Sequence record: NC_070870.1
Reading direction: 5' to 3' (one strand)
Length of the DNA stretch: 64,000 nt
Origin: Escherichia phage phi G17
Part shown: in pieces, positions 1 through 64,000 of the stretch
Layout: each line of letters starts with the position of its first letter
Numbering within the stretch: the first letter of the stretch is position 1
Made by a program: the position numbers and the translations under genes
The notes under the pieces: generated by a model
Database searches by the model: none
What the model saw: the letters and a program-made list of their open reading frames with translations, nothing else
What the model was told of the DNA's origin: nothing

Positions 1-1143
1 AATGTAACTTTTGTGGGTAATCAGACCACAATCGTATCCTCATCTTCTAATTATATATTTGAGAGCGGTTACTTTAGTTCAGGGGATCTGGTAACGAACT
101 GGGGTCTTGATGATACTACCTTGGTTGCTAATGCTATCGTTACAGATTCAAGATTTCTTAACACACACTTTATTGGTATTGATAAAGTATTTAATCTTCG
201 TGGATTTACTATCGGTTGCACTATAGGTAGTGAATCAAAGTGTGTTACTTTCACTTCCTGCGGCACGTGTGTTAATGCGGATATGTCTTTTTATAGTGCA
301 TTCCACTTCTTTGTCCGAGGTGATCACGCTACGAGTTCGGGGCAGTATGCTACTAATTTTGGGCATCAATGCAACCTTAACAGGATTAATGTAACATATG
401 CTGATCGTGCTTACGGGACAACATTGTCAGAGCCTGTATCGGGCGTAAGACCTAATGCAAACATGCAACTTCCTGATTTCTCCGGGTCTTCTTTTGAAGG
501 CATCTCAGGAATTGGTGTGTTGCTTCGTGGTGTAACCTATGGTGTAAAACTTGACAATATCTATGTTGAAAACGTTGCTGTGCTGGTAGGTAAGGATGAT
601 GGGTCGTTTCTAACTCATGAGATGAGATTAAATAACAACTCATGGAACTTCGGGGTTGTGAAACTGATCGGTATAGCTGGCGCTCGTGATATCAACATAG
701 GCGTTTCAGGGAAGGGTGGTGACTACCCTCAAATTGAATTTGTATCAGCTACCGGGATGGAAAATACAGGGGAAATAAATATATCAGGTGAATTCGGACT
801 TACACCTTCAAAGTTAATACTTGATATGAATGATGATATCAAGATAAATTTTAGATATGAATTTCGTGGTTCTGAGGTTACTTACACATCACCTGAAGCA
901 CATGTTGTTATGCCAAATGTTGGTTATCAGCAATTTAATTATACACTGAAAGCGTTTGATTCAACCCATTCAATTGTAAAGAGTGGGATAGCGTCACTTC
1001 AGGGTGTTAGCGGCCTTGGAGGAACTAACGCATATGTATCCCAAAACTCTGATGGAAGTATTGTTCTTCATTTTACAGGGCTTAATTCATCAGAAAATAC
1101 TTGGTTAACATCTGCTACTTTTGTCGTATCCACATGGAGTTAA
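1..1143 (+). CDS. tail fibre/tailspike-like structural protein, C-terminal part (ORF open to window start)
   Basis: Reading frame is open from nt 1 (no in-frame stop before the GTG at 13); Gly/Ser/Thr/Asn-rich, beta-rich composition typical of phage fibres/spikes; sits upstream of the lysis genes; followed by a strong terminator. Confidence 0.45.
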   Translation, partial: NVTFVGNQTTIVSSSSNYIFESGYFSSGDLVTNWGLDDTTLVANAIVTDSRFLNTHFIGIDKVFNLRGFTIGCTIGSESKCVTFTSCGTCVNADMSFYSAFHFFVRGDHATSSGQYATNFGHQCNLNRINVTYADRAYGTTLSEPVSGVRPNANMQLPDFSGSSFEGISGIGVLLRGVTYGVKLDNIYVENVAVLVGKDDGSFLTHEMRLNNNSWNFGVVKLIGIAGARDINIGVSGKGGDYPQIEFVSATGMENTGEINISGEFGLTPSKLILDMNDDIKINFRYEFRGSEVTYTSPEAHVVMPNVGYQQFNYTLKAFDSTHSIVKSGIASLQGVSGLGGTNAYVSQNSDGSIVLHFTGLNSSENTWLTSATFVVSTWS

Positions 1144-14921: not shown

Positions 14922-17900
14922 TTGAACAGGAAACATGCTATGTCAACATTTGACCGTCTGGCAGGTTTCGCAGACAGCATCACTAATGCTAAGCAAGTCG
15001 ATGTCTCTACTGCAACCTCTCAGAAGCAAGCTGCTCAAGGGCAAAGCCCTTTCCAATTAACCCCAGAGAATGCTTACAATCTCCAGACTGGACGAGTAGG
15101 TAATCTTGGAACTGGTGCATTCGAACCAGGTTCACTTCAGGCTGATTTCACTCAAGCCTCTCCATTAGAAATTATTAATAAGTACGGTAATGAGCAAGGT
15201 CTACAGATTCTTAATAGCCGAGCTAATGCTGCTGATGTTGTACGTCAGGACTTATCTAAACAGCGTACTAACGCAGAAGCATTTGGCGATACTCTTTCTG
15301 GTGTTGGTCTTGGTGTTGCTAATACCCTTGGGGGCATTGCTGCTCTTGGCACAGGTCTGGTCAATGATAATGCCGGGGCATCCATTGCTTCCGGGATGGA
15401 TTGGCTGAATGAAGGTGTACGCAATCTCCAGTCTGATGCACTGAACGCTAATCGTAATGTTGTTCAGAATCAGAACCAGATTACTGCACAAGAGAACCAG
15501 AAACTTTACGAACAAGATATTAAGAATGGGGAGAATGACTTAGTTGCCTCCTTGTCTCGCATTGGTCGTGACGCTTTTGATTCTGTTGCTAATACACTTG
15601 ATAATGGTATGGCTGCTTCCGATGGACTGAGTGAAGGCATTGGTTCCCTCTTTACCGGTGGCCCACTTATCCGTGGTGTATCTGCACTTGGTAAAGTAAT
15701 GGTAGGAGGTGATAAAGCTGTTAAGGGTATTACCTTAGCTGCTGAGTTAGGTTCACGTCCTGCACAGGTTGCACTGTCTGCCGGTCGTGTTGCTGCACCT
15801 GCTGTAGCAATCGGTGGTATGGAAGCTGGTGGTGCATACCAACAGACTGCTTCTGAAATCATGAAGATGTCCCATCAAGAATTGGCAAGTAAGTCTCCTG
15901 TTTACCAACAACATATTGCTGATGGTTTATCTCCTGATGAAGCACGTCGTCAGACTGCATCTGAAACAGGTATCACTGCTGCTGGCTTAACTGCTCCAGT
16001 TGCTGCTGCCACCGGTCCACTGGTATCTCGCTTTGAACTTAACCCACTTAAGGTAGGTTCACTGGCAGGTGCTGGTTCTAATATGCTGCGTGAAACAGTT
16101 GAAGAAGGTATTCAATCCGGCTTCGGACAGTTCGCACAGAACACTGCAATCAAGGAAAATGTTGATGCATCCCGTGATACCCTCAAAGGGGTCGGTGAAC
16201 AAGCAGGTCTGGGTGCACTCTATGGCTTCGGTAGTGCTGGAGTTGCTCAAGCTCCAGGTGCAACTGTTAAAGCTGCTGGTGCTGCCGTTGCTCCTGCTGT
16301 ACGTACTACCCTGGCTGGTGCTTCTCTGGTTGGTAATGCATTAGCAAAAGCTGCCTCCCCTATTACTAACATCTTGGTTCAACGTGGCGAAGAAGTTGCT
16401 AAGCGTAATGAACAAGCGTCCCCTGTAGCAGATGCTACGGTTAGTGCTGCTGCACAGGAAGCTACTGCTCAGTCAGAACAAGCACAAGCAACTGTACAGG
16501 AAGCAGTAGATGCAATGGACATTACTCCTGAAGAGAAAGCTGCTGCTACTCAATATGCTTCTGACTTAACACAGGCAATGAACTTTGACCCAGTAGAAAT
16601 AGAACAAGCTAATCCAGCAATCCGTGAAGCTGTTTCTGGTTCCACTAACCGTGTAGAAGCTATTCAGAAGATGGCTGACTTGGTTAATACTGCTGAAGAC
16701 CCTAACGTTCAAATGGAAGCTGCAATCCAGATGTATGACAATATTATGTCCATGGATAGCTTCATTAACCGTGACCCGGGTGCTCTGGCTAATCTGGAAC
16801 AAGGTTCTCCTGCTGCTGCAATCGTAGACCAGTTCTCTGGCTTGATGGCTAACGTACAGAATACACCGAAGGTACTTCGTGCATTCCGTGCTATCCATTC
16901 CATGATTCAGGAACAGGCTGAAGCAGGTAAACTGAAAGCTACTGAAGAAGCTAACCAAGCCCAAGCAAACAACATTGCTATGGCTGCTGATGTATCTCCA
17001 GAAGTGCTGGATGCTGATTCAGTGAACATGGTTCTGAAACACGCTAGCGAAGGTAAGATTACTCTGGGGAATCGTCAACGTGCTGCCCTGCAATCGGCTG
17101 CTGCTGTCTTACAGGGTGCACGCGAGTTCGACGCTAAAGCAGAAGAACTAGGCTTACGACCTCAAGACATTGTTAGTAAACAGATTAAGACCGACGAGTC
17201 TCGCTCTAATGAAGGCCAGTACTCTGCGTTGCAACATGCGAAACGCATTCGTTCTGCGTACAACTCTGGTAACTTCGATTTGGCCTCCGCTTATCTGAAC
17301 GACTTTATGCAGTTCGCCCAGCACATGCAGAATAAGGTCGGAGCGTTGAATGAGCATCTGGTTTCGGGGAATGCGGATAAGAATAAGTCTGTTCACTATC
17401 AGGCTCTCTCGCCTTCCCGTGAATGGGTACGTAGTCGTACTGGCCTCGGTGTCAATCCTTACGATACCAAGTCTGTTAAGTTTGCCCAGCAAGTAGGACT
17501 GGAAGCCAAGACCGTAGCTGATATTGCTAACGCACTTGCTACGGCTTACCCGGAGCTTAATGTTTCTCATGTGAATGTTACCTCGTTGGATTCACGTCTG
17601 GACAAGCCAGCTGCCCAGGTAGTTAAAGAGTTCCGTCAAGGTGGTCTTGATGCCACTCAGTCTCAACAGACTAATGAACCAGTGAATCAGGTTGATGAAA
17701 CTCCTGCACCAGTGCAAGAGACTGCCCCCACTGTACAGCCTAAAGCTGAGCCGGTGGTAGAAAATAAACCTGCTCCTACTAAGGATACTAGTTCAAAAAC
17801 AGAAGAAGTCTCTACTACTAAGTCTGAAACAGTGGATGCTACCCTCACTAATGAGGATACCACCCAGGAAGTAGCTGAAACTAAAACGGAAATGGAATCA

Positions 17901-20900
17901 GTGTTCCCTGTCTATAACAATGAAAAAACACCGAACCAGTTCCTGAAAGCATTTACTCTGCCGGAAGAACCTAAGTCCCGTACCATTGGTTCTGAATCTC
18001 CTTTGACTGATGTTAAGCAAGCACTGTCTTCTGCTGCTCGCTTTGAAGCATTCACTCAAAAAGAAAATAACGCTCTCACAGGTGATGTGATGAAACGTTA
18101 TCAGGACTTGATGGACTTTGGTGAAACACTGAAGACTACTTTGTCTGACCGTCTGGCTAAGTTCCTTGCTAACAAGAATGTTGGTAAACGTTTTGCAGAA
18201 GGTACTGAAGCTAACCGTTGGGTAGGTGGAAAACTGCTGAATATCGTTGAGCAAGATGGTGATACCTTTAAGTTCAATAACCAGTTGTTAGAGACTGCTG
18301 TACTTGCTGGTCTGCAATGGCGACTGACTGCTACGCAGAATGCTGCCGTTAAAGATATGAAAGACGTAGCTGCTATTACTGGTGTAGAAGCATCTCTGTT
18401 ACCAGAAGGTATTCTGGCTGAGTTTGAGAATGCTCAGACTCTGGTTGAAGCTACTAACTCACTGGCTCAAAAGATAGAATCCTATTGGGGTTTGAATCGT
18501 AATGCTAATGCACCACTGGGTTATACCAAAGGTATCCCAATGGCAATGGCTACAGAGATTCTGTCTTCCCTTATTGAGATGGGTGAAGTTAAAGAGTCTA
18601 TGCTGGATGTGTCTGAAATTGACCCAGCCTCTAATAAGACTGTTGGTCTGTATACCATTGAAAAGCTGGATGACAACGATGCTATTAACAAATTCCCTAC
18701 TGCTATTGAGGAAGCTGTCCTCTTAGAACCAGAAGAGAAAATGTACTTTGGTGATGACATTCCTTCCGTGGCTCAAACTCAGTTACGTAACCCTGCTGTT
18801 AAGAATACCCCTGAACAGAAAGCTGCACTGAAAGCTGAACAGGCTACTGAGTTCCGTGTACACATGCCGATGGTTAACTTCTATGAAGCAATGGGCCGTG
18901 AAAACATTCTGGAACTGATGGGTGCTGGTACTCTTAACCCTGAGCTACTGAACGTGAATACTGCTAAGTCACTGGAAGGTAAAAACCTATCCGTGTCTAT
19001 GGCATATGATTCTCTGTTCGGTGTTATCAGTCAGGTACGGGAACAAGAAGCAGGACTGGATACTCCTATCCATTATGGTTACAACATGACCCGTGTCGGT
19101 CGTATGCAGATGCTTGGCAAGAATAACCCACAATCCAGTAAACTGGTTCGTGAAGCAATTCTGCCAACCTTCTCTACTATCGACTTGAGTAATGAAAACA
19201 GCCAAACGTTCTCTGACTTCCAGTTAGGTCTGGCTCAGGCATTAGGTATCAAGGTACATAACATGTCCCGTGAAGCTATGTCTGAAAAGTTGACCAAGGC
19301 TCTGGAAGGTAATCTGAAACCTGCTGTTGATATGATGGTTGAGTTTGATAAGTCTGGTCACTTACCTACTGATGCAGTAGATATTCTGAAGACTTCTCTG
19401 GGTGGTGATAAATCCTTCGTAGCTCTCATGGCTCTGATGGAATATGCCCGTTACCTGAACAGTGACGACCGTGCCAACTTTAATACCCCACTGTACGTTG
19501 AAGCTGATGGTGTAACCAACGGCCCAATCAACGCAATGGTATTAATGACTGGTGGTAAGTTCACTCCAGACTGGATTAAGAACACTGCTAAAGGTGGTCT
19601 TTTCTTTGATAAAGCTGGTAAGACTATGAACGAACATCGTTCACAGGATGACAGTGTTGACTTGTATGAAGCATCTACCAATGGTCTGCAACAAGCACTG
19701 AATGAGTTACGTACTACTTACCGTAACAACGTTCCTGTTATGAACCAGATGAATCATCTCCAGAAGATAATGGACCTGTTCATTAAAGACTTTAACCTGA
19801 ATGAAGACGGTACTCTGGACCTGAAACGTGGTATCGCTAAGAACCCACTCACCATTACCATCTATGGTTCTGGTGCACGTGGTATTGCTGGCAAGATGGT
19901 TAGTGCAATTACTGATACCATCTATGAACGCTTCAGCGACGTTCTGCAAGCACGTGCTGCTGACCCTAGCATTTCCCCAGCTATGGCAATGTTTGGTAAG
20001 GAGGCTGCGTCTGAGGCCGATGCTCAGGCTATGCTGGATACTTTCCTTACTTCTATGGAAGCACTGACAGGTAATGTTCCAGTTATGCGTAAGGGTGAAT
20101 TGTCTATTCAGCAAGCAGAAGGTGCACTGACTGGTAAGTTAGACCCTCAGAAGTTTACTGTATCTGGCAATGCTCTGAAGAACTTACAAGAGAACATGCT
20201 CCACCTGTTCGTTGAACCAATGCGTACCGGTATCCAGAATACTGTTGGTGAAGGTCTGATGCACTCTACTGAGAACTTGCAGAAGGCTACCCAGATTCAA
20301 TCTCTGGTATTGCAGGATATGTTCCAACAAGCAGTACAGGCTAAGCTGGCAGAAAAAGAAAATGACCCAACCTGGAAGAAGGGTGATTTCTTAACTCAGA
20401 AAGAACTGAATGAAATCCAGGAATCATTATCTCCACTGGCCCCAATGATTGAGACTGGTTCACAGACTTTCTACATTGCTGGTAGTGAGAATACTGATGT
20501 TGCTAACCAAGTACTGGCTACCAACTTAGATGACCGTATGCGTGTGCCAATGAGCATCTATGCTCCTTCACAAGCAGGTGTTGCAGGTATTCCATTTATG
20601 ACCATCGGTACTGGTGATGGCATGATGATGCAGACTCTTTCTACTATGAAAGGTGCTCCGAAGAATACCCTGAAAATCTTTGATGGTATGAACATTGGTA
20701 TCAATGACATCACTGATGCAAGTCGTAAAGCAAATGAGGCTGTATACACTTCTTGGCAGGGGAACCCTATCAAGAATGTTTACGACTCCTACGCTAAGTT
20801 CATGAAGAATGTAGACTTCAGCAAACTGTCTGATGAAACTAAACAGGCTATCGCTAAGTCTGCTCTGGAATATGACCAGCGTGAAGGTGCTACAGATGAC

Positions 20901-23900
20901 CTGTTACGTGTAGGTGCTGAGCAGATTGAACGTAACCTGCGTAACATTGCTCTGGGTGTAGATATTCGCCACAAAGTAATGAACCAGGTACAGACCACTG
21001 TTGACCAGATGGCTGCTGTAGGTGCTCCTTATGTGAACAACGGTAAAATCTCTCTGGAAGGTCTGACGGTAGACCAGCAAGTAGCTAAGCTGAACGAACT
21101 GTTTGATGCTGAATTAAACAAGCGTCGTGATGCAGTACGTGCTGCTAAAGCAGAACCAGTGAAAGAAGTACCGGCAATGGAACAAGTTGGTCGTGTGCTT
21201 AAGTCAGGTGTACGTCTGCTGTCCAATACTGCCATTACTAAACTGGCTAAAGAGATGTCCCCAGAACAGCAAGCAGTATTGAAAGAAGTACAGAACTCCC
21301 TTGCTGCTAAAGACTACAAGGTTGTTTATGGTACTCCTGCTCAACTGGATGCTTATGCTATTGAGAAGAACATTACTCGCCCAGCACCGGAAGATATTGA
21401 AGCTGCTGAAGCAGGTAATGCATACGGCTGGACTAACTTTGATGATAAGACTATCTACTTAGTTACCCCTTCCTTAGAGACTCTGGTTCATGAATTGGTA
21501 CATGCTTCTACTTTTGAATCTGTACTGGCTCACTACGAGGGTACTCCTAATGAAGCAGTCCAGAATATTGAAGACTTGATGAACCAGTTCCGTGCTCTGG
21601 ATGTTAAGGATGAATCCCCGGCAGTACGTGAAGCATATGCTGATGCACTCAATACCATTAACGGTCACTTGTCTAATGGTTTCATTGAGCCAGCAATGTC
21701 TAAAGCTGCTGCACTGAATGAGTACATGGCATGGGGCTTAACCAACCGTGAACTGATTGGTAAGCAGAAGAAGACCACTGCACTGAAAGCTATGGTTCAG
21801 TCTGTGTATGAAGCAATTAAGCGTCTGGTATTTGGTCGTAAGAAAGCACCTGTTAATGCAGATGATATGTTCTCTGGCTTACTGTTTAACTCATCTGTAG
21901 TTATGCGTGGACAGGCTCCTACTGCTGCTGTATCCAAGGACACTACCTTGTTCCATAGCAAAGCATATGGTGACAATACTCGTCTGGAAGAGTTAGGGCA
22001 GACCTTTGATAAGCTGATTACTAACTACATTGGTTCTGAACCAGTACAGCAAGTAATCCGTAAAGGTAAGTTTTCTGATGCAGTAGTGAATGCAACTAAA
22101 GTAACCCGTGATGTTCAGGCTCATGGCTTTACTATGAATATGCAGGAACAGCGACTGTTCACTAATATTGTTGCTGCTTTGGCTACTGAAGCTGCTATTA
22201 GTCCGGCTGCTCTTTCTCGTGCACAGGAATATTATGCACATGTTACTAAGAATCTGACTGTTGAAGCATTCATGACAGACCCGGATAGTACTAACCCTGC
22301 TGACCGTTATTATGCACAGCAGAAGTTCGATACCATCATGGGTGCTAATAATATTGAGTATGATGCACAGGGTCGTTCTTCCTTACTGCCTACCTTTGTG
22401 GCTCTGGCAATGGTAAGTGAAGATGTACGTAATGTACTGGCTGACATTCCTGTTATGAAAGCAGATAAGCAATCCGGTAATACCGTTGATGCAATGCTGA
22501 CTAACATTGGTACTGCTGCAATGGCTAGCCTGAATGCTCGTGTAGCAGGTGACACTAAAGCTACTAACGTACAGGAAGGTATGGATGCACTGGCTCAGAC
22601 AATCATGCAGACTAGTCTTAATGCACAGTCATTCTATGATTCCATTGCTACCCCTAGTGGTAATGCTATCGACCGTGCTAACCAGTATCTGGTGGACTCT
22701 ATTGATGTACTGTCCACCCGTGCTTTAGATGGTGCACGTGAGGTTGCAGCTAATACCAAGAATCCGTTGGTTAAGGGTGCTGCTCATGCTGCTCAACTGG
22801 TAGCTGCCATTGCTACAGAGAAGAATGGTGCAATCGTAGCTGAAGGTGTTATGGCTGCAATGAACCAGGGTAAAGCATGGCAACCTTTCCATGACCTGGT
22901 TAATGACTTAACCGGTCGTACTAAGAGCAATGCTTCTGTGTATGATTTAATTAAAGCAGTTCGTGCACAGGTACAGGCTGACCGTCAACAGTTCCGTGAA
23001 CATCTGCCTACCACTATCGCATCTAAGTTCAGCCGTAAGCTGACCAATGATGAATGGAAAGCAATGCACACTGGTATGGGTAAAACTGATTTGGCTGTTC
23101 TGCGTGACACTATGTCTCTGGCTGAAATCCGTGACTTGCTGACTGACCAGAAGATTGTTGACCGTGAAGTGAATAAGCTGGAAGCAGATTTGCAGAAGCA
23201 AGCTGGTCGTAACTGGCCCCTGATTAATCGTAAATCTAAGCAACTGGCTCAGTACATGATTAACGGTACAGTCGGTAATAACCTGCTGCGTAATGCTACT
23301 GCAATCTCCCGTATGCTGGGTGAACGTCAGGCTGCTCGCTCTACCGTAGATGTAGCTCAACTGGATAAACTGATTACTCTGTATGCACTGGAAGCAATGA
23401 ACAAGAAAGACCGTGAGATGTTATCTTCACTGGCTCAATCAGAAGTTGATGGAATGGACTTTGTTACTTCTTATCTGGTTGGTCAGCGTAAAGATGAAAT
23501 GGCTAAAGCCAAATCTGATATGCGTGCAACCCTGAACCAGTACAAAGGGCATATCCCTAGCGAGAACAAACAGGGTGTTAATCTGATTGTTGCTGAAGAT
23601 AGTCAGTTTGCTGATTTGATTGAGAAGTCTTATGTACGTCTGGGTACTTATCAGGGTAGCTCTGCTAACCGTGGTCCGGCACGTAGCTACTACTTCGCAC
23701 CAGTACAGGCACAGGCTCCATTCTCACAGGGTATCCTACAGAACGTTCGTAATACTGCTGGTGGTGTAGACCTCGGCACAGGTTTTACGATGGGTTCAAT
23801 GGTGGCTGGTCGTATTACTGACAAGCCTTCTGTAGACCGTATTACTAAAGCACTGGCTCGTGGTGAGCGTGGTAATGAACCACTGCTGCCTGTATATGAT

Positions 23901-25292
23901 GACAAAGGTAATGTGGTTGCCTATGAGCAATCAATTGACCCTAACATGCTGAAGCACATTGAAGGCGAGAATCACCTTGCCCGTGCAATCGGTGTATGGC
24001 GTGGTCGTCAGGTTGAAGAAGCTAAGGCACAGCGTTTCAACGATATGCTGATTGAGAACCTGCATAGCATGTACGAGAACGACATTAAAATGTCTGCCTC
24101 TAATAAGTCCCAGTACGTGAACCTTCTTGGTTCTAAACTGGACCCAGTAACTGCTGATGCGCTTAAGCTGATGAACAGTGAAACTCGTCAGAAAGCAGAG
24201 AGCCTGTTTGGTGAGGGCGAACTATGGGTACGTCGTGACATGCTGAATGATGCACTAGGTTATCGTGCAGCTTCAGTTGGTGATGCATGGTCTGGTAACT
24301 CTCGTTGGTCCCCGGAAACTCTGGATACCTTCAAGAAAGCTATGCTGGGTGTATTCGGCAACCGTGCTTATAAGTACACAATGGGTGGAGAGAACCTGGT
24401 TCAGAACTTAGTTAAAGAAGCCAAGACTCTGATTGTAGTTAAGTCAGTAGTCGTACCTGCTGTTAACTTCTTGGCCAACCTTTACCAGATGGTTGCTCGT
24501 GGTGTACCGGTTAAGAACATTGCTAAGAGCATTCCACAGAAAACTGCTGAGATTAACCAGTACCTGAAATCTCGTCTGCGTCAGGTGGATGCAGAAGCAG
24601 AATTACGTGCAGCTACTAACCCGAACCAGATTCGTAAACTTAAGGCTGAGATTCAGTCCATCTCTGATAGCCATAAGCGTATGAGTATCTGGCCCCTGTT
24701 GGAAGCTGGTGAGTTCTCTTCAATTGCAGATGCTGGTATTGGTCGTGATGACATCCTGATTACTGAGGGTAAGATTCACGAATACATGGATAAGCTGGCT
24801 GATAAGTTGCCCAAGTCTGTACGTACTGCTGGTCGTTATGCACTTATCACTAAGGATACTGCTCTGTTCCAGGGCATCCAGAAGACGGTTGAGTACTCTG
24901 ACTTTATTGCTAAAGCAATCATCTACGATGAACTGACCCAGCGTAAAGGTAAGACTCGTGAAGAGGCACTTGGTCGTGTAACGGAAGAGTTCGTTAACTA
25001 TGACCGTCTGCCTGGTCGCTTCCGTGGATATATGGAAAGCGTTGGTTTAATGTGGTTCTACAACTTTAAGATTCGTTCTGCAAAAGTTGCAGTATCCATG
25101 ATTCGTAATAACCCAGTACATGCAGCAATGGCTATGTTGGCTCCAACTCCTACCATGTTTGGTAATGTTGGCTTACCTATTCAGGACAACATCTTCAGCA
25201 TTGCAGCACAGGGTAACATGGGTTACTCGTGGGGCTTTGGTCAGGGACTTCGTGCTCACAACCTTAACCCTTGGCTGAACTTAACTAACTAA
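14922..25292 (+). CDS. virion-encapsidated RNA polymerase (giant vRNAP, N4 gp50-like)
   Basis: Single uninterrupted 3456-aa ORF; N4 vRNAP is about 3500 aa and is the last gene of the late strand, as here; internal K-x-P-x-T-x-x-YG segment (KNPLTITIYGSG) resembles T7-like motif B. Confidence 0.85.
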   Translation: MNRKHAMSTFDRLAGFADSITNAKQVDVSTATSQKQAAQGQSPFQLTPENAYNLQTGRVGNLGTGAFEPGSLQADFTQASPLEIINKYGNEQGLQILNSRANAADVVRQDLSKQRTNAEAFGDTLSGVGLGVANTLGGIAALGTGLVNDNAGASIASGMDWLNEGVRNLQSDALNANRNVVQNQNQITAQENQKLYEQDIKNGENDLVASLSRIGRDAFDSVANTLDNGMAASDGLSEGIGSLFTGGPLIRGVSALGKVMVGGDKAVKGITLAAELGSRPAQVALSAGRVAAPAVAIGGMEAGGAYQQTASEIMKMSHQELASKSPVYQQHIADGLSPDEARRQTASETGITAAGLTAPVAAATGPLVSRFELNPLKVGSLAGAGSNMLRETVEEGIQSGFGQFAQNTAIKENVDASRDTLKGVGEQAGLGALYGFGSAGVAQAPGATVKAAGAAVAPAVRTTLAGASLVGNALAKAASPITNILVQRGEEVAKRNEQASPVADATVSAAAQEATAQSEQAQATVQEAVDAMDITPEEKAAATQYASDLTQAMNFDPVEIEQANPAIREAVSGSTNRVEAIQKMADLVNTAEDPNVQMEAAIQMYDNIMSMDSFINRDPGALANLEQGSPAAAIVDQFSGLMANVQNTPKVLRAFRAIHSMIQEQAEAGKLKATEEANQAQANNIAMAADVSPEVLDADSVNMVLKHASEGKITLGNRQRAALQSAAAVLQGAREFDAKAEELGLRPQDIVSKQIKTDESRSNEGQYSALQHAKRIRSAYNSGNFDLASAYLNDFMQFAQHMQNKVGALNEHLVSGNADKNKSVHYQALSPSREWVRSRTGLGVNPYDTKSVKFAQQVGLEAKTVADIANALATAYPELNVSHVNVTSLDSRLDKPAAQVVKEFRQGGLDATQSQQTNEPVNQVDETPAPVQETAPTVQPKAEPVVENKPAPTKDTSSKTEEVSTTKSETVDATLTNEDTTQEVAETKTEMESVFPVYNNEKTPNQFLKAFTLPEEPKSRTIGSESPLTDVKQALSSAARFEAFTQKENNALTGDVMKRYQDLMDFGETLKTTLSDRLAKFLANKNVGKRFAEGTEANRWVGGKLLNIVEQDGDTFKFNNQLLETAVLAGLQWRLTATQNAAVKDMKDVAAITGVEASLLPEGILAEFENAQTLVEATNSLAQKIESYWGLNRNANAPLGYTKGIPMAMATEILSSLIEMGEVKESMLDVSEIDPASNKTVGLYTIEKLDDNDAINKFPTAIEEAVLLEPEEKMYFGDDIPSVAQTQLRNPAVKNTPEQKAALKAEQATEFRVHMPMVNFYEAMGRENILELMGAGTLNPELLNVNTAKSLEGKNLSVSMAYDSLFGVISQVREQEAGLDTPIHYGYNMTRVGRMQMLGKNNPQSSKLVREAILPTFSTIDLSNENSQTFSDFQLGLAQALGIKVHNMSREAMSEKLTKALEGNLKPAVDMMVEFDKSGHLPTDAVDILKTSLGGDKSFVALMALMEYARYLNSDDRANFNTPLYVEADGVTNGPINAMVLMTGGKFTPDWIKNTAKGGLFFDKAGKTMNEHRSQDDSVDLYEASTNGLQQALNELRTTYRNNVPVMNQMNHLQKIMDLFIKDFNLNEDGTLDLKRGIAKNPLTITIYGSGARGIAGKMVSAITDTIYERFSDVLQARAADPSISPAMAMFGKEAASEADAQAMLDTFLTSMEALTGNVPVMRKGELSIQQAEGALTGKLDPQKFTVSGNALKNLQENMLHLFVEPMRTGIQNTVGEGLMHSTENLQKATQIQSLVLQDMFQQAVQAKLAEKENDPTWKKGDFLTQKELNEIQESLSPLAPMIETGSQTFYIAGSENTDVANQVLATNLDDRMRVPMSIYAPSQAGVAGIPFMTIGTGDGMMMQTLSTMKGAPKNTLKIFDGMNIGINDITDASRKANEAVYTSWQGNPIKNVYDSYAKFMKNVDFSKLSDETKQAIAKSALEYDQREGATDDLLRVGAEQIERNLRNIALGVDIRHKVMNQVQTTVDQMAAVGAPYVNNGKISLEGLTVDQQVAKLNELFDAELNKRRDAVRAAKAEPVKEVPAMEQVGRVLKSGVRLLSNTAITKLAKEMSPEQQAVLKEVQNSLAAKDYKVVYGTPAQLDAYAIEKNITRPAPEDIEAAEAGNAYGWTNFDDKTIYLVTPSLETLVHELVHASTFESVLAHYEGTPNEAVQNIEDLMNQFRALDVKDESPAVREAYADALNTINGHLSNGFIEPAMSKAAALNEYMAWGLTNRELIGKQKKTTALKAMVQSVYEAIKRLVFGRKKAPVNADDMFSGLLFNSSVVMRGQAPTAAVSKDTTLFHSKAYGDNTRLEELGQTFDKLITNYIGSEPVQQVIRKGKFSDAVVNATKVTRDVQAHGFTMNMQEQRLFTNIVAALATEAAISPAALSRAQEYYAHVTKNLTVEAFMTDPDSTNPADRYYAQQKFDTIMGANNIEYDAQGRSSLLPTFVALAMVSEDVRNVLADIPVMKADKQSGNTVDAMLTNIGTAAMASLNARVAGDTKATNVQEGMDALAQTIMQTSLNAQSFYDSIATPSGNAIDRANQYLVDSIDVLSTRALDGAREVAANTKNPLVKGAAHAAQLVAAIATEKNGAIVAEGVMAAMNQGKAWQPFHDLVNDLTGRTKSNASVYDLIKAVRAQVQADRQQFREHLPTTIASKFSRKLTNDEWKAMHTGMGKTDLAVLRDTMSLAEIRDLLTDQKIVDREVNKLEADLQKQAGRNWPLINRKSKQLAQYMINGTVGNNLLRNATAISRMLGERQAARSTVDVAQLDKLITLYALEAMNKKDREMLSSLAQSEVDGMDFVTSYLVGQRKDEMAKAKSDMRATLNQYKGHIPSENKQGVNLIVAEDSQFADLIEKSYVRLGTYQGSSANRGPARSYYFAPVQAQAPFSQGILQNVRNTAGGVDLGTGFTMGSMVAGRITDKPSVDRITKALARGERGNEPLLPVYDDKGNVVAYEQSIDPNMLKHIEGENHLARAIGVWRGRQVEEAKAQRFNDMLIENLHSMYENDIKMSASNKSQYVNLLGSKLDPVTADALKLMNSETRQKAESLFGEGELWVRRDMLNDALGYRAASVGDAWSGNSRWSPETLDTFKKAMLGVFGNRAYKYTMGGENLVQNLVKEAKTLIVVKSVVVPAVNFLANLYQMVARGVPVKNIAKSIPQKTAEINQYLKSRLRQVDAEAELRAATNPNQIRKLKAEIQSISDSHKRMSIWPLLEAGEFSSIADAGIGRDDILITEGKIHEYMDKLADKLPKSVRTAGRYALITKDTALFQGIQKTVEYSDFIAKAIIYDELTQRKGKTREEALGRVTEEFVNYDRLPGRFRGYMESVGLMWFYNFKIRSAKVAVSMIRNNPVHAAMAMLAPTPTMFGNVGLPIQDNIFSIAAQGNMGYSWGFGQGLRAHNLNPWLNLTN

Positions 25293-55402: not shown

Positions 55403-56221
55403 TTAGTCTTCGTTTACTAATTCTTTATCAGCGAACTCCAGTACAGCTTTGTTGTAACTGGTTCCTTGATAGTTGATGTGATAGCCCTGAGCGTAAGTAC
55501 GCCCACGTTTATCGAATTTGTGACCTAGTGAGAAGTTATTACCCTCTTGGGTCACTAACTCCATTACTTCCTTAGCAGTACGGCTGTACTTCTCAAAGGC
55601 TTTGACACGTTTCTCATAGTCCTGACGGGTTTCACCCTCTTTAGGTTTATCCATGTTAGGACGGGAGTCTTTTACATAGTTAGCAACGTCCCAGTTAATA
55701 CAGAGACGTTGGTTGTTCATACGGTTGATGTGGTCAAGACAGACATCCATCTCATGATGGTTCTTCTTGAGGATGATTGAGCCTTTGGACTCATAGTAAC
55801 CAGTATCCCGGTTAGTCAGGACAGGCTTAGGTTTACTTACGATAGGCAATGGATACTGGAATGCCTCCAGTTCCATCTGAACATCTTCACTAATCTCATA
55901 GATAACACCGAACTTGTCGATGGTAGGGTCATAGTTGAAGCAGTCATTCTCTGCCATCTTATACAGACAGTCAGCGATATACTGAGCATCATCTGAGTGA
56001 CTCATGAGAGAGCCAATCATAGTCTGAATGTCAGCACGTTTATGTAGGGCAATCTGCACCATTGCATCAATGAGCAGCTTATAATCAATTTCCAGGTAGG
56101 CAGCGAATGCCTTAAAGTCAATTTCTTTGGATTCCTCGAACTCTTTCCTCATGCGAGGCAAAAGTTGATTCTTATTAAATAGTTTTTCGAGGGTTTTCTG
56201 GTGCTCAATGGATGCGTACAT
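55403..56221 (-). CDS. RNA polymerase II small subunit (N4 gp15-like, N-terminal T7-RNAP-like part)
   Basis: 272 aa ORF immediately upstream of the catalytic subunit; size matches N4 gp15 as recalled. Confidence 0.5.
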   Translation of the reverse strand: MYASIEHQKTLEKLFNKNQLLPRMRKEFEESKEIDFKAFAAYLEIDYKLLIDAMVQIALHKRADIQTMIGSLMSHSDDAQYIADCLYKMAENDCFNYDPTIDKFGVIYEISEDVQMELEAFQYPLPIVSKPKPVLTNRDTGYYESKGSIILKKNHHEMDVCLDHINRMNNQRLCINWDVANYVKDSRPNMDKPKEGETRQDYEKRVKAFEKYSRTAKEVMELVTQEGNNFSLGHKFDKRGRTYAQGYHINYQGTSYNKAVLEFADKELVNED

Positions 56222-58710: not shown

Positions 58711-58739
58711 AAAATAAAAGGACTACCCGAAGGTAGTCC
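58711..58739 (-). terminator. rho-independent terminator (minus orientation)
   Basis: GGACTACC-TTCG-GGTAGTCC on minus strand followed by TTTTATTTTT. Confidence 0.7.
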
Positions 58740-58748
58740 AGTTGTTGA

Positions 58749-59132
58749 TTAGAAAGTCAGTTTACGAGCATATTTATTCTCGTCTGCTGGGATGTCAGCA
58801 GCCTCTGCTTTCACACGACGAAGTTGAACTTGCAGGTTAATGATACCTTCTTCACCTGGTTCCAGGTTCTGAGCATATTCGATTAACTGTTCCAGCAAAT
58901 CGTTCTGTGCACAACGCATAGCACGGAAGTCAGCATTGCTGCTGTTAGTAGGCAGTGCTTCCTGAGTATCCAGTGGAATACCAGTAGGCAGAGAGATGAA
59001 CTTCTCTTCTTCAGAGCCTTCGTTAGCAACATAACCAATGTTCAACCAGAACTGAGCCTTAGGCTTAGCAGCTTTAGTTTCAGTGGTAGCAGCAGCGTTA
59101 GATTGACCGAAAGTGAATTTTTGAATAGACAT
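58749..59132 (-). CDS. early protein, unknown function
   Basis: Start set to internal ATG ([11 protein letters not shown]) with SD GGAGAG 8 nt upstream; first ORF downstream of candidate hairpin promoter at 59243-59257. Confidence 0.45.
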
Positions 59133-59242
59133 TTTGTACTCTCCAGATAAATGATTGTTTGATTTATGGGTTTGTCTGTCGGTGACTAAACCCAAGAAAA
59201 GACTTAAGATTTCAATGATTAGTGGATTCACATGAATCCTTT

Positions 59243-59257
59243 AGACGCGGAGCGTCT
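59243..59257 (-). promoter_or_regulatory. candidate virion-RNAP hairpin promoter
   Basis: Plus (template) strand A-GACGC-GGA-GCGTC-T: 5-6 bp stem, 3-nt purine loop; shares GCGGAGC core with hairpin at 60013-60027. Confidence 0.45.
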
Positions 59258-59262
59258 GGTTT

Positions 59263-59556
59263 TTAAGACAAGCGTTTAAGCAACTCTGCTCTAGCAGATT
59301 CGTAGTCAGAACTATTCTGTCTTACTGCATCTTCGAAGCGAGCCAGTAGTTCTTCCTTATCAGGACCAACAAGTTCTTCCCATTGCCATACATAACCAGT
59401 TAATGGAACAAGTTCTCCTTTCTGGAAGTAAGGATATTGTCCAAGTAGAACAGTAGAATCTTTAGTGAGAACTATCGTTTCTCCACTAAGTTCTCCTTCA
59501 ATAATTGTTCCAACAGGAAGTTCAGAATTGCCTTTGATACAACGGAATTTAGTCAT
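59263..59556 (-). CDS. hypothetical early protein
   Basis: 97 aa ORF. Confidence 0.4.
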   Translation of the reverse strand: MTKFRCIKGNSELPVGTIIEGELSGETIVLTKDSTVLLGQYPYFQKGELVPLTGYVWQWEELVGPDKEELLARFEDAVRQNSSDYESARAELLKRLS

Positions 59557-59610
59557 GATTTTCTATCCTTAAAGTAGATAAATATCTACTTAGACTATCT
59601 ATCTAATCTT

Positions 59611-59638
59611 TATAAAAGGAGACTCCGAAGAGCCTCCT
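59611..59638 (-). terminator. rho-independent terminator (minus orientation)
   Basis: AGGAGGCTC-TTCG-GAGTCTCCT on minus strand followed by TTTTATA. Confidence 0.6.
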
Positions 59639-59646
59639 ATATTGAT

Positions 59647-59970
59647 TTAGTCTTTAGTCAGGATGTCGATTACTTTTGAATATTCTGCGTTATAGATACG
59701 AGCGTTCTCAGAATCTTTGCAGAATTCTTCGATACTTTTCTTACGCAGAGTTTCGTTCATAGCTGTTTCTTCAGCTAATTTGTTTACGAATGTATGCATT
59801 TCTAATTTAGTACGGATGGCTTGTTTCTCAGCCATAGTAGATACATATGAGTTAAGCATACCAACTGCTTTAGTAGCTGTGCCGAATGTATCAGCAACAG
59901 TAGTAGCAGCAGAGTTAACAGTACCAAGTAAAGTTCCTGCGGTCATACGTACAGTAGCGGTAGTAGTCAT
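59647..59970 (-). CDS. hypothetical early protein
   Basis: 107 aa ORF; first ORF downstream of candidate hairpin promoter at 60013-60027. Confidence 0.4.
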   Translation of the reverse strand: MTTTATVRMTAGTLLGTVNSAATTVADTFGTATKAVGMLNSYVSTMAEKQAIRTKLEMHTFVNKLAEETAMNETLRKKSIEEFCKDSENARIYNAEYSKVIDILTKD

Positions 59971-60012
59971 GATGATAGCTCCAAGGTTAGATGATAGGAC
60001 GACATGTCCATA

Positions 60013-60027
60013 ACATGCGGAGCATGT
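60013..60027 (-). promoter_or_regulatory. candidate virion-RNAP hairpin promoter
   Basis: Plus (template) strand A-CATGC-GGA-GCATG-T: 5-6 bp stem, GGA loop; same GCGGAGC core as 59243-59257 with covarying outer stem. Confidence 0.45.
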
Positions 60028-60175
60028 GTAACGTGTAAGGTGGGGTAGGGCAGTGGCTACACGGTCAACATACCGGGGGGGATGGTTGAGTGTAAGGGTG
60101 TAGCCCCAGCCACACCACTACAGCTATACATAGCTATCAATATTTTGATATGCAAAAATATCATAGCTATCTCAC

Positions 60176-60463
60176 TTATAAGCAGTTAAATAGGAGGTGA
60201 GGGGTTTGGTAGCTATCTGTATTCACATGCCACGGGGAGGACATGCTTCCCTCCCACGGGAGTACCTTTCCTGGTTCAAGTACCCTTACTATAAGTTTCT
60301 TACCTGCTATCAGTGCCAAGCCTTGTAACTCATGAAGGGTATCTTCATCGGGGACCAGAACCAGTGTGGCTTTAGCTAGCTTTAGATCTTGGAAGTCTAT
60401 CTGTCTTTTTACAGAGTCGGGTCTATACCCTTTAAGAGGAATACGCGTGATAATCATAGTCAT
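60176..60463 (-). CDS. hypothetical early protein
   Basis: 95 aa ORF. Confidence 0.35.
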   Translation of the reverse strand: MTMIITRIPLKGYRPDSVKRQIDFQDLKLAKATLVLVPDEDTLHELQGLALIAGKKLIVRVLEPGKVLPWEGSMSSPWHVNTDSYQTPHLLFNCL

Positions 60464-60822
60464 ACGCCGTAGTCTATCTTAACCAATCTGCCTTTGTAGT
60501 AGCCAAAGTTCTTGGGAAAGGCATCATATTCGTAGAACTCTCTGGATAACTCACAAGAGTGGTATAGGGATTCTAACTCACACCAGAATAACCCCTCATT
60601 GTTAACTTTACTGGCTCTAGCCATGACAACCAGTAGGCCAAATCTATTCGAGTAATGGATTGGACATAGATGCTTGTCTGGGTAATCTTTCCATTGACCC
60701 TCTGTAAGGTTGCTAAGCATACCCTGTACAAAGGTCTTCCATGTCTTGGGGATAGGGAACTTAATAGCATACTTACGTGTTAATAGTACCCATCTGGTTC
60801 CACCTGATTTAATCAGTCTCAT
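60460..60822 (-). CDS. hypothetical early protein
   Basis: 120 aa ORF. Confidence 0.4.
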   Translation of the reverse strand: MRLIKSGGTRWVLLTRKYAIKFPIPKTWKTFVQGMLSNLTEGQWKDYPDKHLCPIHYSNRFGLLVVMARASKVNNEGLFWCELESLYHSCELSREFYEYDAFPKNFGYYKGRLVKIDYGV

Positions 60823-61026
60823 GGTTTTAGTAACCTCAGTATAAGTTTAAACATTACCAGTTCTATAAGATGGTGCTTTGGTGATTATACGGATAGTTCT
60901 GAAGGAGTTACCTTCTCTTACCGTACCGGTCGGAAGTACACGGTAACTTTATTCCGGGACATTAAACCCCAGCGTGGGTTGAATATTTCCTGGGTAGATA
61001 CCCCTCCTTCAAACATCATGAATAGT

Positions 61027-61341
61027 TTAAGGTTCATACTTCAGTACCTGATTAAGAAGACTATCCATGTAATAGCAGTATGCCTCGGAGGATTCGTCAT
61101 TAATAGGAAGACCAATTAAGCCAAAGGTGTATATGCAGAAGTGATTGAGTTCATGAACCAAGGTGATAGGGTCATTATCTTTTGCATAGATGAGTACCGA
61201 ACCATTAGGGAGTAGTGAGGTTATACCTTTGCTTCCATCCTCTGGTTCAATGCCTTTAGCCTTCTTATATTTCTTAGAGAAGGTAGACCAGTCATGTACT
61301 ACTTCTAACTGTACTGGATAGGGGGATGTGTTTAGTTTCAT
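61027..61341 (-). CDS. hypothetical early protein
   Basis: 104 aa ORF. Confidence 0.4.
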   Translation of the reverse strand: MKLNTSPYPVQLEVVHDWSTFSKKYKKAKGIEPEDGSKGITSLLPNGSVLIYAKDNDPITLVHELNHFCIYTFGLIGLPINDESSEAYCYYMDSLLNQVLKYEP

Positions 61342-61661
61342 TAGATACTCTCGTCGCTAGATAAATATGAGGTAGAAGGATAAAGGGTAATCAGTCTACC
61401 GGTAAGGGTAGTAGCTACCATAGGTTCACAAGTAGATAGGATGTATACACCTTTATTCTTAGGTACTTCGACAGGGGTATCTATCTTAATAAAAGTAACT
61501 GGTATACCTAACATTAAGCATGTACCAAGGAATTCATCAGCTTCTTGACTAGGTTCATACAGGACTGTAGTAGTCTTAGCCTTACCGTTGTACCAATCCT
61601 GCTTTGTTATGCTGGATAGATAGCAACTATCACTGTAGTTAGCTAAACAATAGAAGTGCAT
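61341..61661 (-). CDS. hypothetical early protein
   Basis: 106 aa ORF abutting neighbours. Confidence 0.4.
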   Translation of the reverse strand: MHFYCLANYSDSCYLSSITKQDWYNGKAKTTTVLYEPSQEADEFLGTCLMLGIPVTFIKIDTPVEVPKNKGVYILSTCEPMVATTLTGRLITLYPSTSYLSSDESI

Positions 61662-61664
61662 AGC

Positions 61665-61979
61665 TTACTTCCTTACATAGTAGTAACGGTATTCGTCATT
61701 CTCATAACGACTATCCCATTGGTATTCATCAGATACCAGCATGTATGGGATAGGATCATTAGCACTGTGGTTTGTATAGACGGAAGGGGGAACAAGACAT
61801 ACAACCTTACGGTCATTACTTGCCAAGAAGAGTTGACCCCTTACTTCATGGTAATCCTCTAAGGTAGGAACCAGGATTACTTGATGTGGGTTACTGTTCA
61901 TGACCTCTTCTAAAGTGAAGTCAGTTGTGTACATAGACACCCTTTCAGCAAAACTGGGGATGGTCATTATAAATTTCAT
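61665..61979 (-). CDS. hypothetical early protein
   Basis: 104 aa ORF. Confidence 0.4.
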   Translation of the reverse strand: MKFIMTIPSFAERVSMYTTDFTLEEVMNSNPHQVILVPTLEDYHEVRGQLFLASNDRKVVCLVPPSVYTNHSANDPIPYMLVSDEYQWDSRYENDEYRYYYVRK

Positions 61980-62343
61980 GATTGGTTCTCCTTCCTTTAG
62001 GAAGAGGTCTGAAGTAAATGGAAAGTGTTTTATTAAAGACGTTATGGTCAGCTATCAATTCCCAACCGTCTATCTTATAGAAGCGTACACCGGGGAAGAA
62101 CTCATTGAATCCTATATAGCGGGTAAGGTCATACACCTTTGGTTCAGTAAGTATCTCAGTGTTAAGCTGAAGGTTGTATAAGAAAAGAGAACCAATAACC
62201 TCATGGGACTCTTCGCAGTCAGGTAAGAATACTGATTGCCATGGAGCAATGAACTTACTTACTGCTTCTGGTTCCCCAAGGTAATAGGGTTCCTGCTTAT
62301 GAAGTACTCCAGTAATATCAATATCAAAACAGTAGATGCTCAT
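61945..62343 (-). CDS. hypothetical early protein
   Basis: 132 aa ORF. Confidence 0.4.
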   Translation of the reverse strand: MSIYCFDIDITGVLHKQEPYYLGEPEAVSKFIAPWQSVFLPDCEESHEVIGSLFLYNLQLNTEILTEPKVYDLTRYIGFNEFFPGVRFYKIDGWELIADHNVFNKTLSIYFRPLPKGRRTNHEIYNDHPQFC

Positions 62344-62358
62344 AATTGCATACCTCCA

Positions 62359-62395
62359 GAAAAAGAAATGGGGTAGAGCCTCTCGACTCTACCCC
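62359..62395 (-). terminator. rho-independent terminator (minus orientation)
   Basis: GGGGTAGAG / CTCTACCCC 9-bp stem; on minus strand followed by ATTTCTTTTTCT. Confidence 0.6.
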
Positions 62396-62545
62396 TTACC
62401 GTTTTCAATCACGGGTCAGTTCATCCCCCTAGGTACTTATGTACCGTTAGACCAACTGGGTTGGCAAAGGAGCCGGGGAACCCTGACTGTAGAAGTTATT
62501 AACTCTTTACGAGTACCGCCACTGTCTACTAGGCGGTATGACTAA

Positions 62546-62863
62546 TCACATCGTCACCGTCATCCGAACGCTATCGTTGCTTCGTTTGATGGAGACACTA
62601 TGAGGTAATTTTGTGAAGAACACAAGAGATGAAACAGACTTTTCTAAAGAGTAAGTTTCTTGTGGTTCTAAGATGGTAACACCGGGACGATTCTCTAATA
62701 ACATCATTCCAGATAACTCATGGAAAGAATCCCAGTCATGGGTAACAACTATGTCACCCTTCATTAAGCCAGCCTTGGTGTGGCTTACTTCAAAGTATTT
62801 GTCTCCGGAGTCTTGGACTCTCATAAAGATTCTCAAGGGGTACTCCTTGGGGAATAAGGTCAT
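62546..62863 (-). CDS. hypothetical early protein
   Basis: 105 aa ORF, rightmost minus-strand gene. Confidence 0.4.
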   Translation of the reverse strand: MTLFPKEYPLRIFMRVQDSGDKYFEVSHTKAGLMKGDIVVTHDWDSFHELSGMMLLENRPGVTILEPQETYSLEKSVSSLVFFTKLPHSVSIKRSNDSVRMTVTM

Positions 62864-63006
62864 CGGAACATTACATACTATTTAGTATCATGAACTTTTT
62901 CTATATCATGACTAAAGTGTAACTGTGTGGTAGAGTTTCTTCAAGGGGTATCTCACCCCAAGAAAAGAATCTTCGTTAATAGACATAACTTTGTAGAGAG
63001 ATAAGT

Positions 63007-63696
63007 ATGAGTGAACTAACTAAGCAGCAGATTGTTAATGCCTTACCTGCTAACTTCAAGAACAGTGTGAGCCAAGAGTTGGTAGACACGATTAACAACG
63101 TAACCCAGGACCAATTGGTTGCTGAGGCATTTCGTGAAAACTTCATCTCTTACTCTGGTGTCATGAAGGAAGGCAAGTTTAAGACACAGGACTACATGAA
63201 TGCAGTTCAGTATGTAACTTACAAACACATGGGCTACTCGAATAAGGAAGCCTACTTCAAGACATTCCCCAACCGACAAGCAGAACTAGTAGCACGAGGA
63301 ACCAGTGAGAAAGATATTAGTGCTTACGTATCTGCTTATCACAGAGGTAAGTTAGTTAACCTAATCATGGAACAAAGTTTGGTTCCAGTGTGGATTGTGA
63401 ACCAAGACAATTATCAGAAGGCAATCAACGTACAGGTTGAACTAATGAATACGGCTGTTAGTGAGAAGGTTCGTTGCGATGCAGCTAACTCTATCCTTAC
63501 TCACTTAGCTAAACCAAAAGATCAGGTAACGAATATCAATCTGGACTTGAGAGAGAACTCCGGGTTGACTGACCTCAAGGCAACACTTGCTGCATTGGCT
63601 GAACAGCAAATTAGTGCAATCAATAGTGGTGTACCTACTAAAGAGATTGCTGGTTCTAAACTCGTACGTGCAGATGAGGACATTACAGATGTCTGA
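63007..63696 (+). CDS. hypothetical protein preceding terminase (possible small terminase subunit)
   Basis: 229 aa ORF whose stop overlaps the ATG of the next ORF (ATGTCTGA); position only. Confidence 0.3.
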   Translation: MSELTKQQIVNALPANFKNSVSQELVDTINNVTQDQLVAEAFRENFISYSGVMKEGKFKTQDYMNAVQYVTYKHMGYSNKEAYFKTFPNRQAELVARGTSEKDISAYVSAYHRGKLVNLIMEQSLVPVWIVNQDNYQKAINVQVELMNTAVSEKVRCDAANSILTHLAKPKDQVTNINLDLRENSGLTDLKATLAALAEQQISAINSGVPTKEIAGSKLVRADEDITDV

Positions 63697-64000
63697 GTTA
63701 ATTAAACAGGAACTAGATGAATGGCTAGACCAGGTGGATTACTCCCACCTTAATTCTTCTAACTATGTTCCTAGTCAGTTTGCTCTTACCTTTGCCAACT
63801 TCATTAAGTTGGTTAATGGCAAAGAGGGCGAATCAAACAAAACACCTCCAGTTCACCTGAAGATGTTGGATAAGATGATTAGCCCTAACCAGTATGTAGT
63901 TAACCTGTGTTTCCGTGGTGCAGGTAAGACTGCTGTATTCATGGAATACTTTACTCTGTTCCTGGCAGTGTTTGGTCACTTACCTAGTTTGGGTAAAGTA
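63689..64000 (+). CDS. probable terminase large subunit, N-terminal part (ORF runs off window end)
   Basis: Open frame from ATG 63689 to window end; FRGAGKT Walker-A-like motif; location at head of late strand. Confidence 0.4.
   Translation, partial: MSELIKQELDEWLDQVDYSHLNSSNYVPSQFALTFANFIKLVNGKEGESNKTPPVHLKMLDKMISPNQYVVNLCFRGAGKTAVFMEYFTLFLAVFGHLPSLGKV

Follow-up and report, generated by a model that had tools for sequence, protein, structure and literature searches.

The window analyzed here, a stretch of 64,000 nucleotides from Escherichia phage phi G17 (NC_070870.1), contains a short inverted repeat in its early gene region. The region shares 94% identity with Escherichia phage vB_EcoP_PhAPEC7 (Gamaleyavirus, Schitoviridae, Enquatrovirinae), and 82 phage records match it, mostly N4-like Gamaleyavirus phages of Escherichia, Klebsiella, and Shigella. 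Judged by this similarity, the window is a Gamaleyavirus (N4-like) genome in reverse orientation. PhAPEC7 nucleotide 1 corresponds approximately to window position 60112 on the reverse strand, and the window beyond approximately 60112 (60113-64000) matches PhAPEC7 70190-71778, its right end. Since the window thus spans both ends of the PhAPEC7 genome, the source record is either circularly permuted or joined at the terminal repeat. Because the genome is reversed and the credible genes from approximately 54 to 60 kb all lie on the minus strand, the plus strand is the template strand of the early genes.

The minus-strand genes run in the order gp1-like, gp2-like, and further on gp15/16-like. Mapping the PhAPEC7 annotation onto the window places a homologue of N4 gp1 at 59647..59970, a 97-aa ORF without an N4 counterpart (phrog_24403) at 59263..59556, the gene for an "N4 gp2-like protein", a cofactor of the second phage RNA polymerase, at 58749..59231, and the small subunit of that polymerase (the N4 gp15 homologue) at 55403..56221, all on the minus strand. 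The gp2 unit ends in an intrinsic terminator at 58720..58739 (minus strand; GGACTACCTTCGGGTAGTCC followed by TTTTATTTTT), which was found by a consensus scan and coincides with a terminator annotated at the same place in PhAPEC7.

The inverted repeat reads A-GACGC-GGA-GCGTC-T on the plus strand at 59243-59257 and is followed there by GGTTTTTAAG. It occupies the 130-nt spacer between the stop codon of ORF 59263..59556 and the ORF ending at 58749, with that stop codon (TTA at 59263-59265 on the plus strand) 5 nt from the stem. Relative to the PhAPEC7 genome, approximately 870 nt separate it from the left end, and the gene directly downstream of it is the gp2 homologue. A consensus scan of the spacer (59133-59262) detected no sigma-70-like promoter on the minus strand. 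On the basis of its sequence, its fold, a covariance model, and its orthology with the N4 promoter P2, we refer to this element (stem GACGC/GCGTC and loop GGA, 59244..59256, on the plus or template strand) as the predicted P2 promoter hairpin.

The P2 stem consists of five perfect pairs, which the outer pair A59243:T59257 extends to 6 bp and which become 8 if G-T pairs are allowed. When folded as single-stranded DNA, the segment 59220-59265 has a predicted energy of -9.3 kcal/mol (z = -4.8 against shuffled sequences). The hairpin sits on the plus strand, the template strand of the minus-strand genes, and its dimensions agree with the 5-7 bp stem and 3-nt loop of N4-type virion RNA polymerase (vRNAP) promoters. 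Numbered as in N4 from the center of the loop, it spans -5 to -17, with the loop bases -12A, -11G, and -10G at 59251, 59250, and 59249, the loop-closing pair formed by -9C (59248) and -13G (59252), and -8G at 59247. The putative initiation region, at 59238..59243 on the plus (template) strand and placed by the spacing of its CC and the +1C determinant, comprises C59238 (+2), C59239 (+1), and TTTA (-1 to -4). C59239 lies 11 nt from the loop center, which fits the N4 rule exactly. By homology with N4, the P2 transcript is predicted to begin with G at 59239 and to run leftward on the minus strand.

The determinants against which we compared the site are those given in a 2015 review (PMC4496689). 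Extrusion and stability of a vRNAP promoter require a loop-closing 3'G:C5' pair together with 3'A and 5'G in the loop, the polymerase specifically recognizes -11A/G, -10G, -8G, and +1C, and the other stem bases are variable provided that they pair (PMC4496689). All of these published determinants are present at 59243-59257, namely the closing C:G pair, -12A, -11G, -10G, -8G, and +1C. The sole departure from N4-type features in the hairpin and start region is the pyrimidine T59240 at -1, where the accessory feature is a purine. In N4 structures the initiating nucleotide stacks on the -1 purine (PMC4496689), and the T at this position could reduce the strength of the P2 promoter.

Two further hairpins of this design are present in the window. 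The initial annotation had described the P2 hairpin as sharing its architecture and an identical GCGGAGC core with a hairpin at 60013-60027, with a different outer stem in which pairing is kept, and the sequences bear this out. The second hairpin reads A CATGC GGA GCATG T, and two of its three outer stem pairs differ from those of P2, both with compensation. This sister promoter, P1 (60014..60026, plus strand, flank gtcc ataa), lies upstream of the gp1 homologue at 59647..59970. A search of the whole sequence for such hairpins, which the initial annotation had proposed, returned three plus-strand sites, the third of which had escaped that annotation: P3 (56255..56267, plus strand, GGTGC GGA GCACC, flank tacc acaa), which precedes the gene for the gp15-like RNAPII subunit at 55403..56221. 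The corresponding flank of P2 is atcc-ttta, so that all three sites carry CC and then four bases (NNNA) directly 5' of the stem.

The heptamer GCGGAGC is by itself not significant, with 3 matches in the 64-kb window where 2.3 are expected. Nevertheless, all three copies are on the plus strand and each forms the core of a perfect 13-nt hairpin, and among the 123 hairpins of five pairs and a three-base loop in the 64 kb these are the only plus-strand ones with a GGA loop. Hairpins of this kind with the CC-N4 flank were observed 3 times against an expected 0.037, as estimated from 300 first-order Markov simulations in which the maximum was 1. A covariance model built solely from sites in other phages, with no window sequence, matches the three sites at 28-32 bits (E of 1.5e-5 to 1.4e-4), and the next match on either strand is at 11 bits (E of 2.1), a gap of 17 bits. 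No further vRNAP promoter was detected in the window, either with the covariance model run with its filters off or with a looser pattern that admitted one stem mismatch and any GNA loop on both strands.

The same window searches detected no hairpin promoter for ORF 59263..59556 or for the minus-strand ORFs at the right end (60176-62863). A probable terminator follows the gp1 homologue at 59618-59637 (minus strand; GGAGGCTC-TTCG-GAGTCTCC, with one mismatch, then TTTTAT). This hairpin is homologous to the one that follows N4 gp1 and was missed by the consensus scan, apparently due to the mismatch. Flanked by the gp1 terminator and P2 and lacking its own hairpin promoter, ORF 59263..59556 would have to be transcribed by read-through from P1. 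Just upstream of the start of this 97-aa ORF there is also a perfect AT-rich hairpin, AGTAGAT-AAAT-ATCTACT at 59573-59590 (plus strand), preceded by tatcc-ttaa. Its geometry of CC, four nucleotides, and a hairpin is like that of the vRNAP sites, but its loop has 4 nt, and both the GNA loop and the closing C:G pair are lacking. The covariance model gave no score to 59573-59590, and the 5' part of the element (ttaaagtagata) is also found in N4, where it adjoins P2.

The arrangement of the three sites reproduces that of N4. Within the first 9 kb of the N4 genome the heptamer GCGRAGC occurs exactly three times, always on the template strand: at 93-99 before gp1 (P1, gtcc ataa GTTGC GAA GCAAC), at 562-568 before gp2 (P2, catcc aaaa GAAGC GGA GCTTC), and at 4551-4557 before gp15 (P3, tacc aaaa GCTGC GGA GCAGC). 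All three are mapped promoters of the virion polymerase, P1-P3 (PMC4496689; PMC13492108), and the oligonucleotide used for cryo-EM carries ...CC AAAA GAAGC GGA GCTTC (PMC13492108). The three hairpins of the window precede the homologues of N4 gp1, gp2, and gp15, matching the positions of P1, P2, and P3. Their stems differ from those of N4 by compensated changes, from GTTGC to CATGC at P1 and from GCTGC to GGTGC at P3, and by one compensated change, from GAAGC to GACGC, at P2. The N4 and window P2 sites share the template-strand hairpin with its 5-bp stem, GGA loop, and GCGGAGC core, the -8G, the +1C after a 4-nt spacer, and the position directly upstream of gp2; their flanks align, and the residues by which the polymerase recognizes the promoter are conserved. 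They differ in one compensated stem pair (GACGC/GCGTC in the window, GAAGC/GCTTC in N4), in the spacer (TTTA instead of AAAA, with a pyrimidine at -1 in the window where N4 P1-P3 have A), and in the extra 97-aa ORF (59263..59556) that in the window stands between the gp1 terminator and the promoter. N4 P2 is a mapped promoter represented by polymerase-bound crystal and cryo-EM structures, and the window P2 is its predicted counterpart.

The window also encodes the enzyme that would use these sites. A plus-strand gene at 14922..25292 specifies a virion RNA polymerase of 3456 aa, which matches the solved N4 vRNAP structures with E = 0. In N4 mini-vRNAP numbering, K114, R119, and W129, the residues reading -10G and -11G, are kept (motif LANKNVGKRFAEGTEANRW in the window, LNTKDVGKRFAQGTEANRW in N4). 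The specificity loop likewise retains D901 and R904, the residues reading -9C/-10G and -8G, in a motif identical to that of N4 (ATNLDDRMRVPM). Conservation is not full: the intercalating hairpin has two lysines in N4, and the window polymerase has N in place of K267 but keeps K268.

To set the site among its relatives, we used 34 viral contigs that encode a gp2 relative, which together with N4 give 35 related loci. Of the hairpins with a C-GNA-G core in these loci, 65 lie on the template strand and 8 on the coding strand; CC stands at the N4 spacing in 58 of the 65, as it does at all three window sites. Among the 44 unique related sites, G is present at -8 in 42 and a purine at -11 in 41, neither position having been used for selection; A is found at -4 in 36, and the -1 position is A in 37 and T in 7. 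These 44 sites have 14 different stems. In an alignment of 22 orthologues from upstream of gp2 the promoter helix is 100% paired, a value that is partly a selection effect because the related sites were gathered by a search for perfect hairpins. At four of the five pairs both partners are altered among these orthologues, and the closing C:G pair is invariant. For the closer gp2-upstream sequences, orthology is clear from the flanks. Six more distant gp2 loci (L020, L026, L030, L031, L033, and L035) have no recognizable hairpin in the 260-400 nt upstream of the tblastn match and so contribute nothing to the comparison.

We therefore regard the hairpin at 59243-59257, with high confidence on this comparative sequence evidence, as early promoter P2 of a coliphage of the G7C/PhAPEC7 type (N4-like, Gamaleyavirus). 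The initial annotation had suggested a hairpin promoter of the virion RNA polymerase, and this reading is supported by the strand, the loop, the closing pair, -8G, the spacing to +1C, the position, the covariation, and the polymerase residues. Our case is built on the architecture, determinants, position, covariation, and enzyme residues described above, and the steps of the mechanism are taken from N4 biochemistry (PMC4496689). By analogy with N4, negative supercoiling driven by gyrase after injection would extrude the short inverted repeat as a cruciform, and E. coli SSB would then melt the non-template arm and spare the stable GCGGAGC "mini-hairpin" on the template (plus) strand (PMC4496689). 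The template-strand arm would survive SSB because GCGGAGC belongs to an exceptionally stable class, the GCGNAGC DNA "mini-hairpins", which are unusually stable, have a three-base loop, and include the N4 promoter as a cited example (PMC13037366). The GCGGAGC core of P2 places it in this class, which is a structural class and not a functional family, a promoter needing in addition -8G, +1C, and the outer stem. Once injected, the virion RNA polymerase would bind the template-strand hairpin, and RNA synthesis would begin with GTP opposite C59239 and proceed leftward, as in N4 (PMC4496689). At N4-type promoters, initiation at +1 resists rifampicin and requires both gyrase and E. coli SSB. The resulting unit of approximately 520 nt would carry the gp2-like gene and end at the terminator at 58720-58739.

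Other functions for the hairpin must be weighed against this one. Read on the plus strand, AGACGC-GGA-GCGUCU followed by GGUUUUU could be an intrinsic (Rho-independent) terminator that stops rightward transcription, for example antisense transcription by the host polymerase, as its sole or second function, and this was the alternative offered in the initial annotation. Our consensus scan does list plus-strand 59241..59259 as terminator-like (8 pairs with G-T allowed, then TTTTTAAGAC), and 19 of the 44 unique related sites, mostly of P2 type, have a T-run after the stem. The other 25 sites lack it, among them P1- and P3-type sites and several P2 orthologues, and it is missing at P1 and P3 of the window as well; at P2 it is made up partly of the stop codon TTA (59263-59265) of ORF 59263..59556 plus five spacer bases. 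No plus-strand gene ends here: the nearby plus-strand ORFs are antisense and lie inside minus-strand genes, and the remark in the initial annotation that no plus-strand gene is nearby agrees with the minus-strand location of all credible genes from 54 to 60 kb. Moreover, a terminator has no need of a conserved loop sequence, of -8G, or of CC exactly 4 nt away on the opposite side of the stem. Strand-specific conservation of this kind fits a leftward promoter, and we reject the plus-strand terminator as improbable. In relatives, the T-run corresponding to 59258-59266 (plus strand), just upstream of the hairpin in the sense of the early genes, occurs mainly at sites directly after the stop codon of an ORF. 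It may be just a stop codon plus AT-rich spacer, or an AT-rich flank that eases cruciform extrusion.

The hairpin could also act at the RNA level, in leftward read-through transcripts, where AGACGC-UCC-GCGUCU might serve as a 3' stabilizer, a processing site, or a terminator of the ORF 59263..59556 message. It does stand directly downstream of that ORF on the same strand, 5 nt past the stop codon, and in a nearest-neighbor model the minus strand folds equally well. However, no U-run comes next on the minus strand, where the sequence continues AAAGGAUUC, and the corresponding hairpin before gp2 in N4 has no adjoining upstream ORF. The strong bias to one strand, the conservation of the GGA rather than the UCC reading, and the conserved flank on the gp2 side also speak against such a role, and we consider it even less probable than the terminator and reject it, above all for the missing U-run and the N4 hairpin that does without the ORF. 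That the hairpin is a functionless chance palindrome in an AT-rich spacer is scarcely credible. The count of GCGGAGC alone (3 against 2.3) would allow it, but the count of CC-flanked hairpins (3 against 0.037), the covariance-model E values of 1e-5 to 1e-4 with their 17-bit gap, and the compensatory changes that conserve the site across 22 orthologous loci all oppose it, and this reading was likewise rejected.

Returning to the P2 promoter, its predicted transcript would itself begin in a stem-loop, GGAUUC-AUGU-GAAUCC (59224..59239, minus strand), which was recognized from its fold and as a helix in the alignment. This helix is 78.6% paired in the 22 orthologues, and one of its pairs changes on both sides. 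When the partner columns of the promoter helix and the 5'-transcript helix, tested together, were slid by 1-3 positions, pairing fell from 89% to 27-53%. A GUG start codon at 59231-59229 (+9), 8 nt after the predicted transcription start, lies inside the stem-loop and opens a long form of gp2 of 160 aa; the internal ATG at 59132, which stands behind a strong GGAGAG ribosome-binding site identical to that of N4, gives 127 aa. While the initial annotation was right to place the hairpin just upstream of an ORF at 58749-59132, the start of that gene needs refinement, and the gene served by P2 probably begins at GTG 59231 (the long form) and not only at ATG 59132.

The 33-residue hydrophobic N-terminal extension ((M)...) of the long form is conserved in 16 relatives, in which it starts 9-12 nt after the predicted +1. 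That the extension is coding follows from its length differences, which are whole codons, from the distribution of its variable columns over the codon positions (11/3/9), and from a serine kept through an AGT/TCC switch. The N4 annotation (gp2 at 586..1071, +1 at 576) likewise implies a coding extension, and an association with the membrane has been reported for N4 gp2 (PMC4496689). It is thus possible that two forms of gp2 are made, one of them from a nearly leaderless start.

In relatives, most sites of P1 or P2 type have stem-loops that include +1; such stem-loops are missing from P3 and from promoters that serve inserted ORFs. The stem is GGAUUC..GAAUCC at the window P2 and GGAUG..CAUCC in N4, more distant relatives have other stems, and the window P1 has its own at 59997-60009. 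The first or second base of the transcript is paired in 34 of 42 unique sites, with a mean z of -2.2. These 5' hairpins possibly protect the mRNA, control the gp2 start codon, or help to release the RNA from its template. The further proposal that the P2 unit is more than a plain promoter, with the 5' hairpin setting the ratio of membrane-bound to soluble gp2 cofactor, protecting the message, or peeling the RNA off the template, is speculative, and we hold it to be rather unlikely. No description of a dual-form gp2 or of regulation by a 5' hairpin was found in the literature searched.

Hairpin promoters of this type have been listed for other phages. Putative promoter P2 of the N4-like Klebsiella phage KP8 (AAGACGCTCCGCGTCTTATGGA; PMC6950046, Table 1) shares all 15 nt of the hairpin, which reads AGACGC-TCC-GCGTCT on the coding strand (AGACGCTCCGCGTCT), and its transcript likewise starts with GGA (PMC6950046). 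In contrast, the coding-strand spacer is TAT in KP8 and AAA in the window, and the KP8 site precedes ORF4 and not a gp2 analogue, having been predicted by N4 similarity only. The early hairpin promoters of Pseudomonas phage LUZ7 were mapped by ONT-cappable-seq (PMC9163698). They resemble the window sites in a stem of at least 4 bp, a conserved 3-nt loop, G-initiated transcripts, and an injected vRNAP that reads the promoters (PMC9163698), but the LUZ7 start is 13-14 nt from the hairpin center, whereas the window keeps the N4 spacing of 11 nt, and LUZ7 has nine early starts where the window has three sites. It is routine for papers describing the genomes of N4-like phages to list hairpins of this kind from their similarity to N4 (PMC6027278; PMC3715699; PMC9163698). 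For the G7C-like phages, the literature searched offered no usable transcript map or promoter description under either phage or genus, and the GenBank record of PhAPEC7, the nearest relative, annotates none of the three promoters in its early region. The P2 hairpin is therefore already known as a kind and unannotated as an instance; as the orthologue, in both position and sequence, of a phage promoter that ranks among the best characterized, it is a textbook element and not a new one.

The value of the assignment is mainly one of annotation: the gp2 transcription unit gains a defined start, and P1, P2, and P3 together make up the full set of virion-polymerase promoters of this genome. As far as the sequences indicate, the promoter rules worked out by N4 biochemistry apply unchanged to the G7C/PhAPEC7 group, and the 14 natural stems form a covariation set consistent with a recognition model of "structure plus four bases". 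The identification of P2 opens no new question.

We would like to note one further feature of the relatives. In five of the related loci (L003, L005, L011, L012, and L016) an additional hairpin promoter occupies the interval from gp1 to gp2, where the window has the 97-aa ORF, and in several relatives this additional promoter comes with an extra ORF. The window P2 hairpin, together with the sequence directly flanking it (CC TTTA ... TGGTTTTTAA), matches exactly a site in L005 that precedes an inserted ORF and not gp2. This identity suggests that promoter-ORF cassettes have been shuffled.
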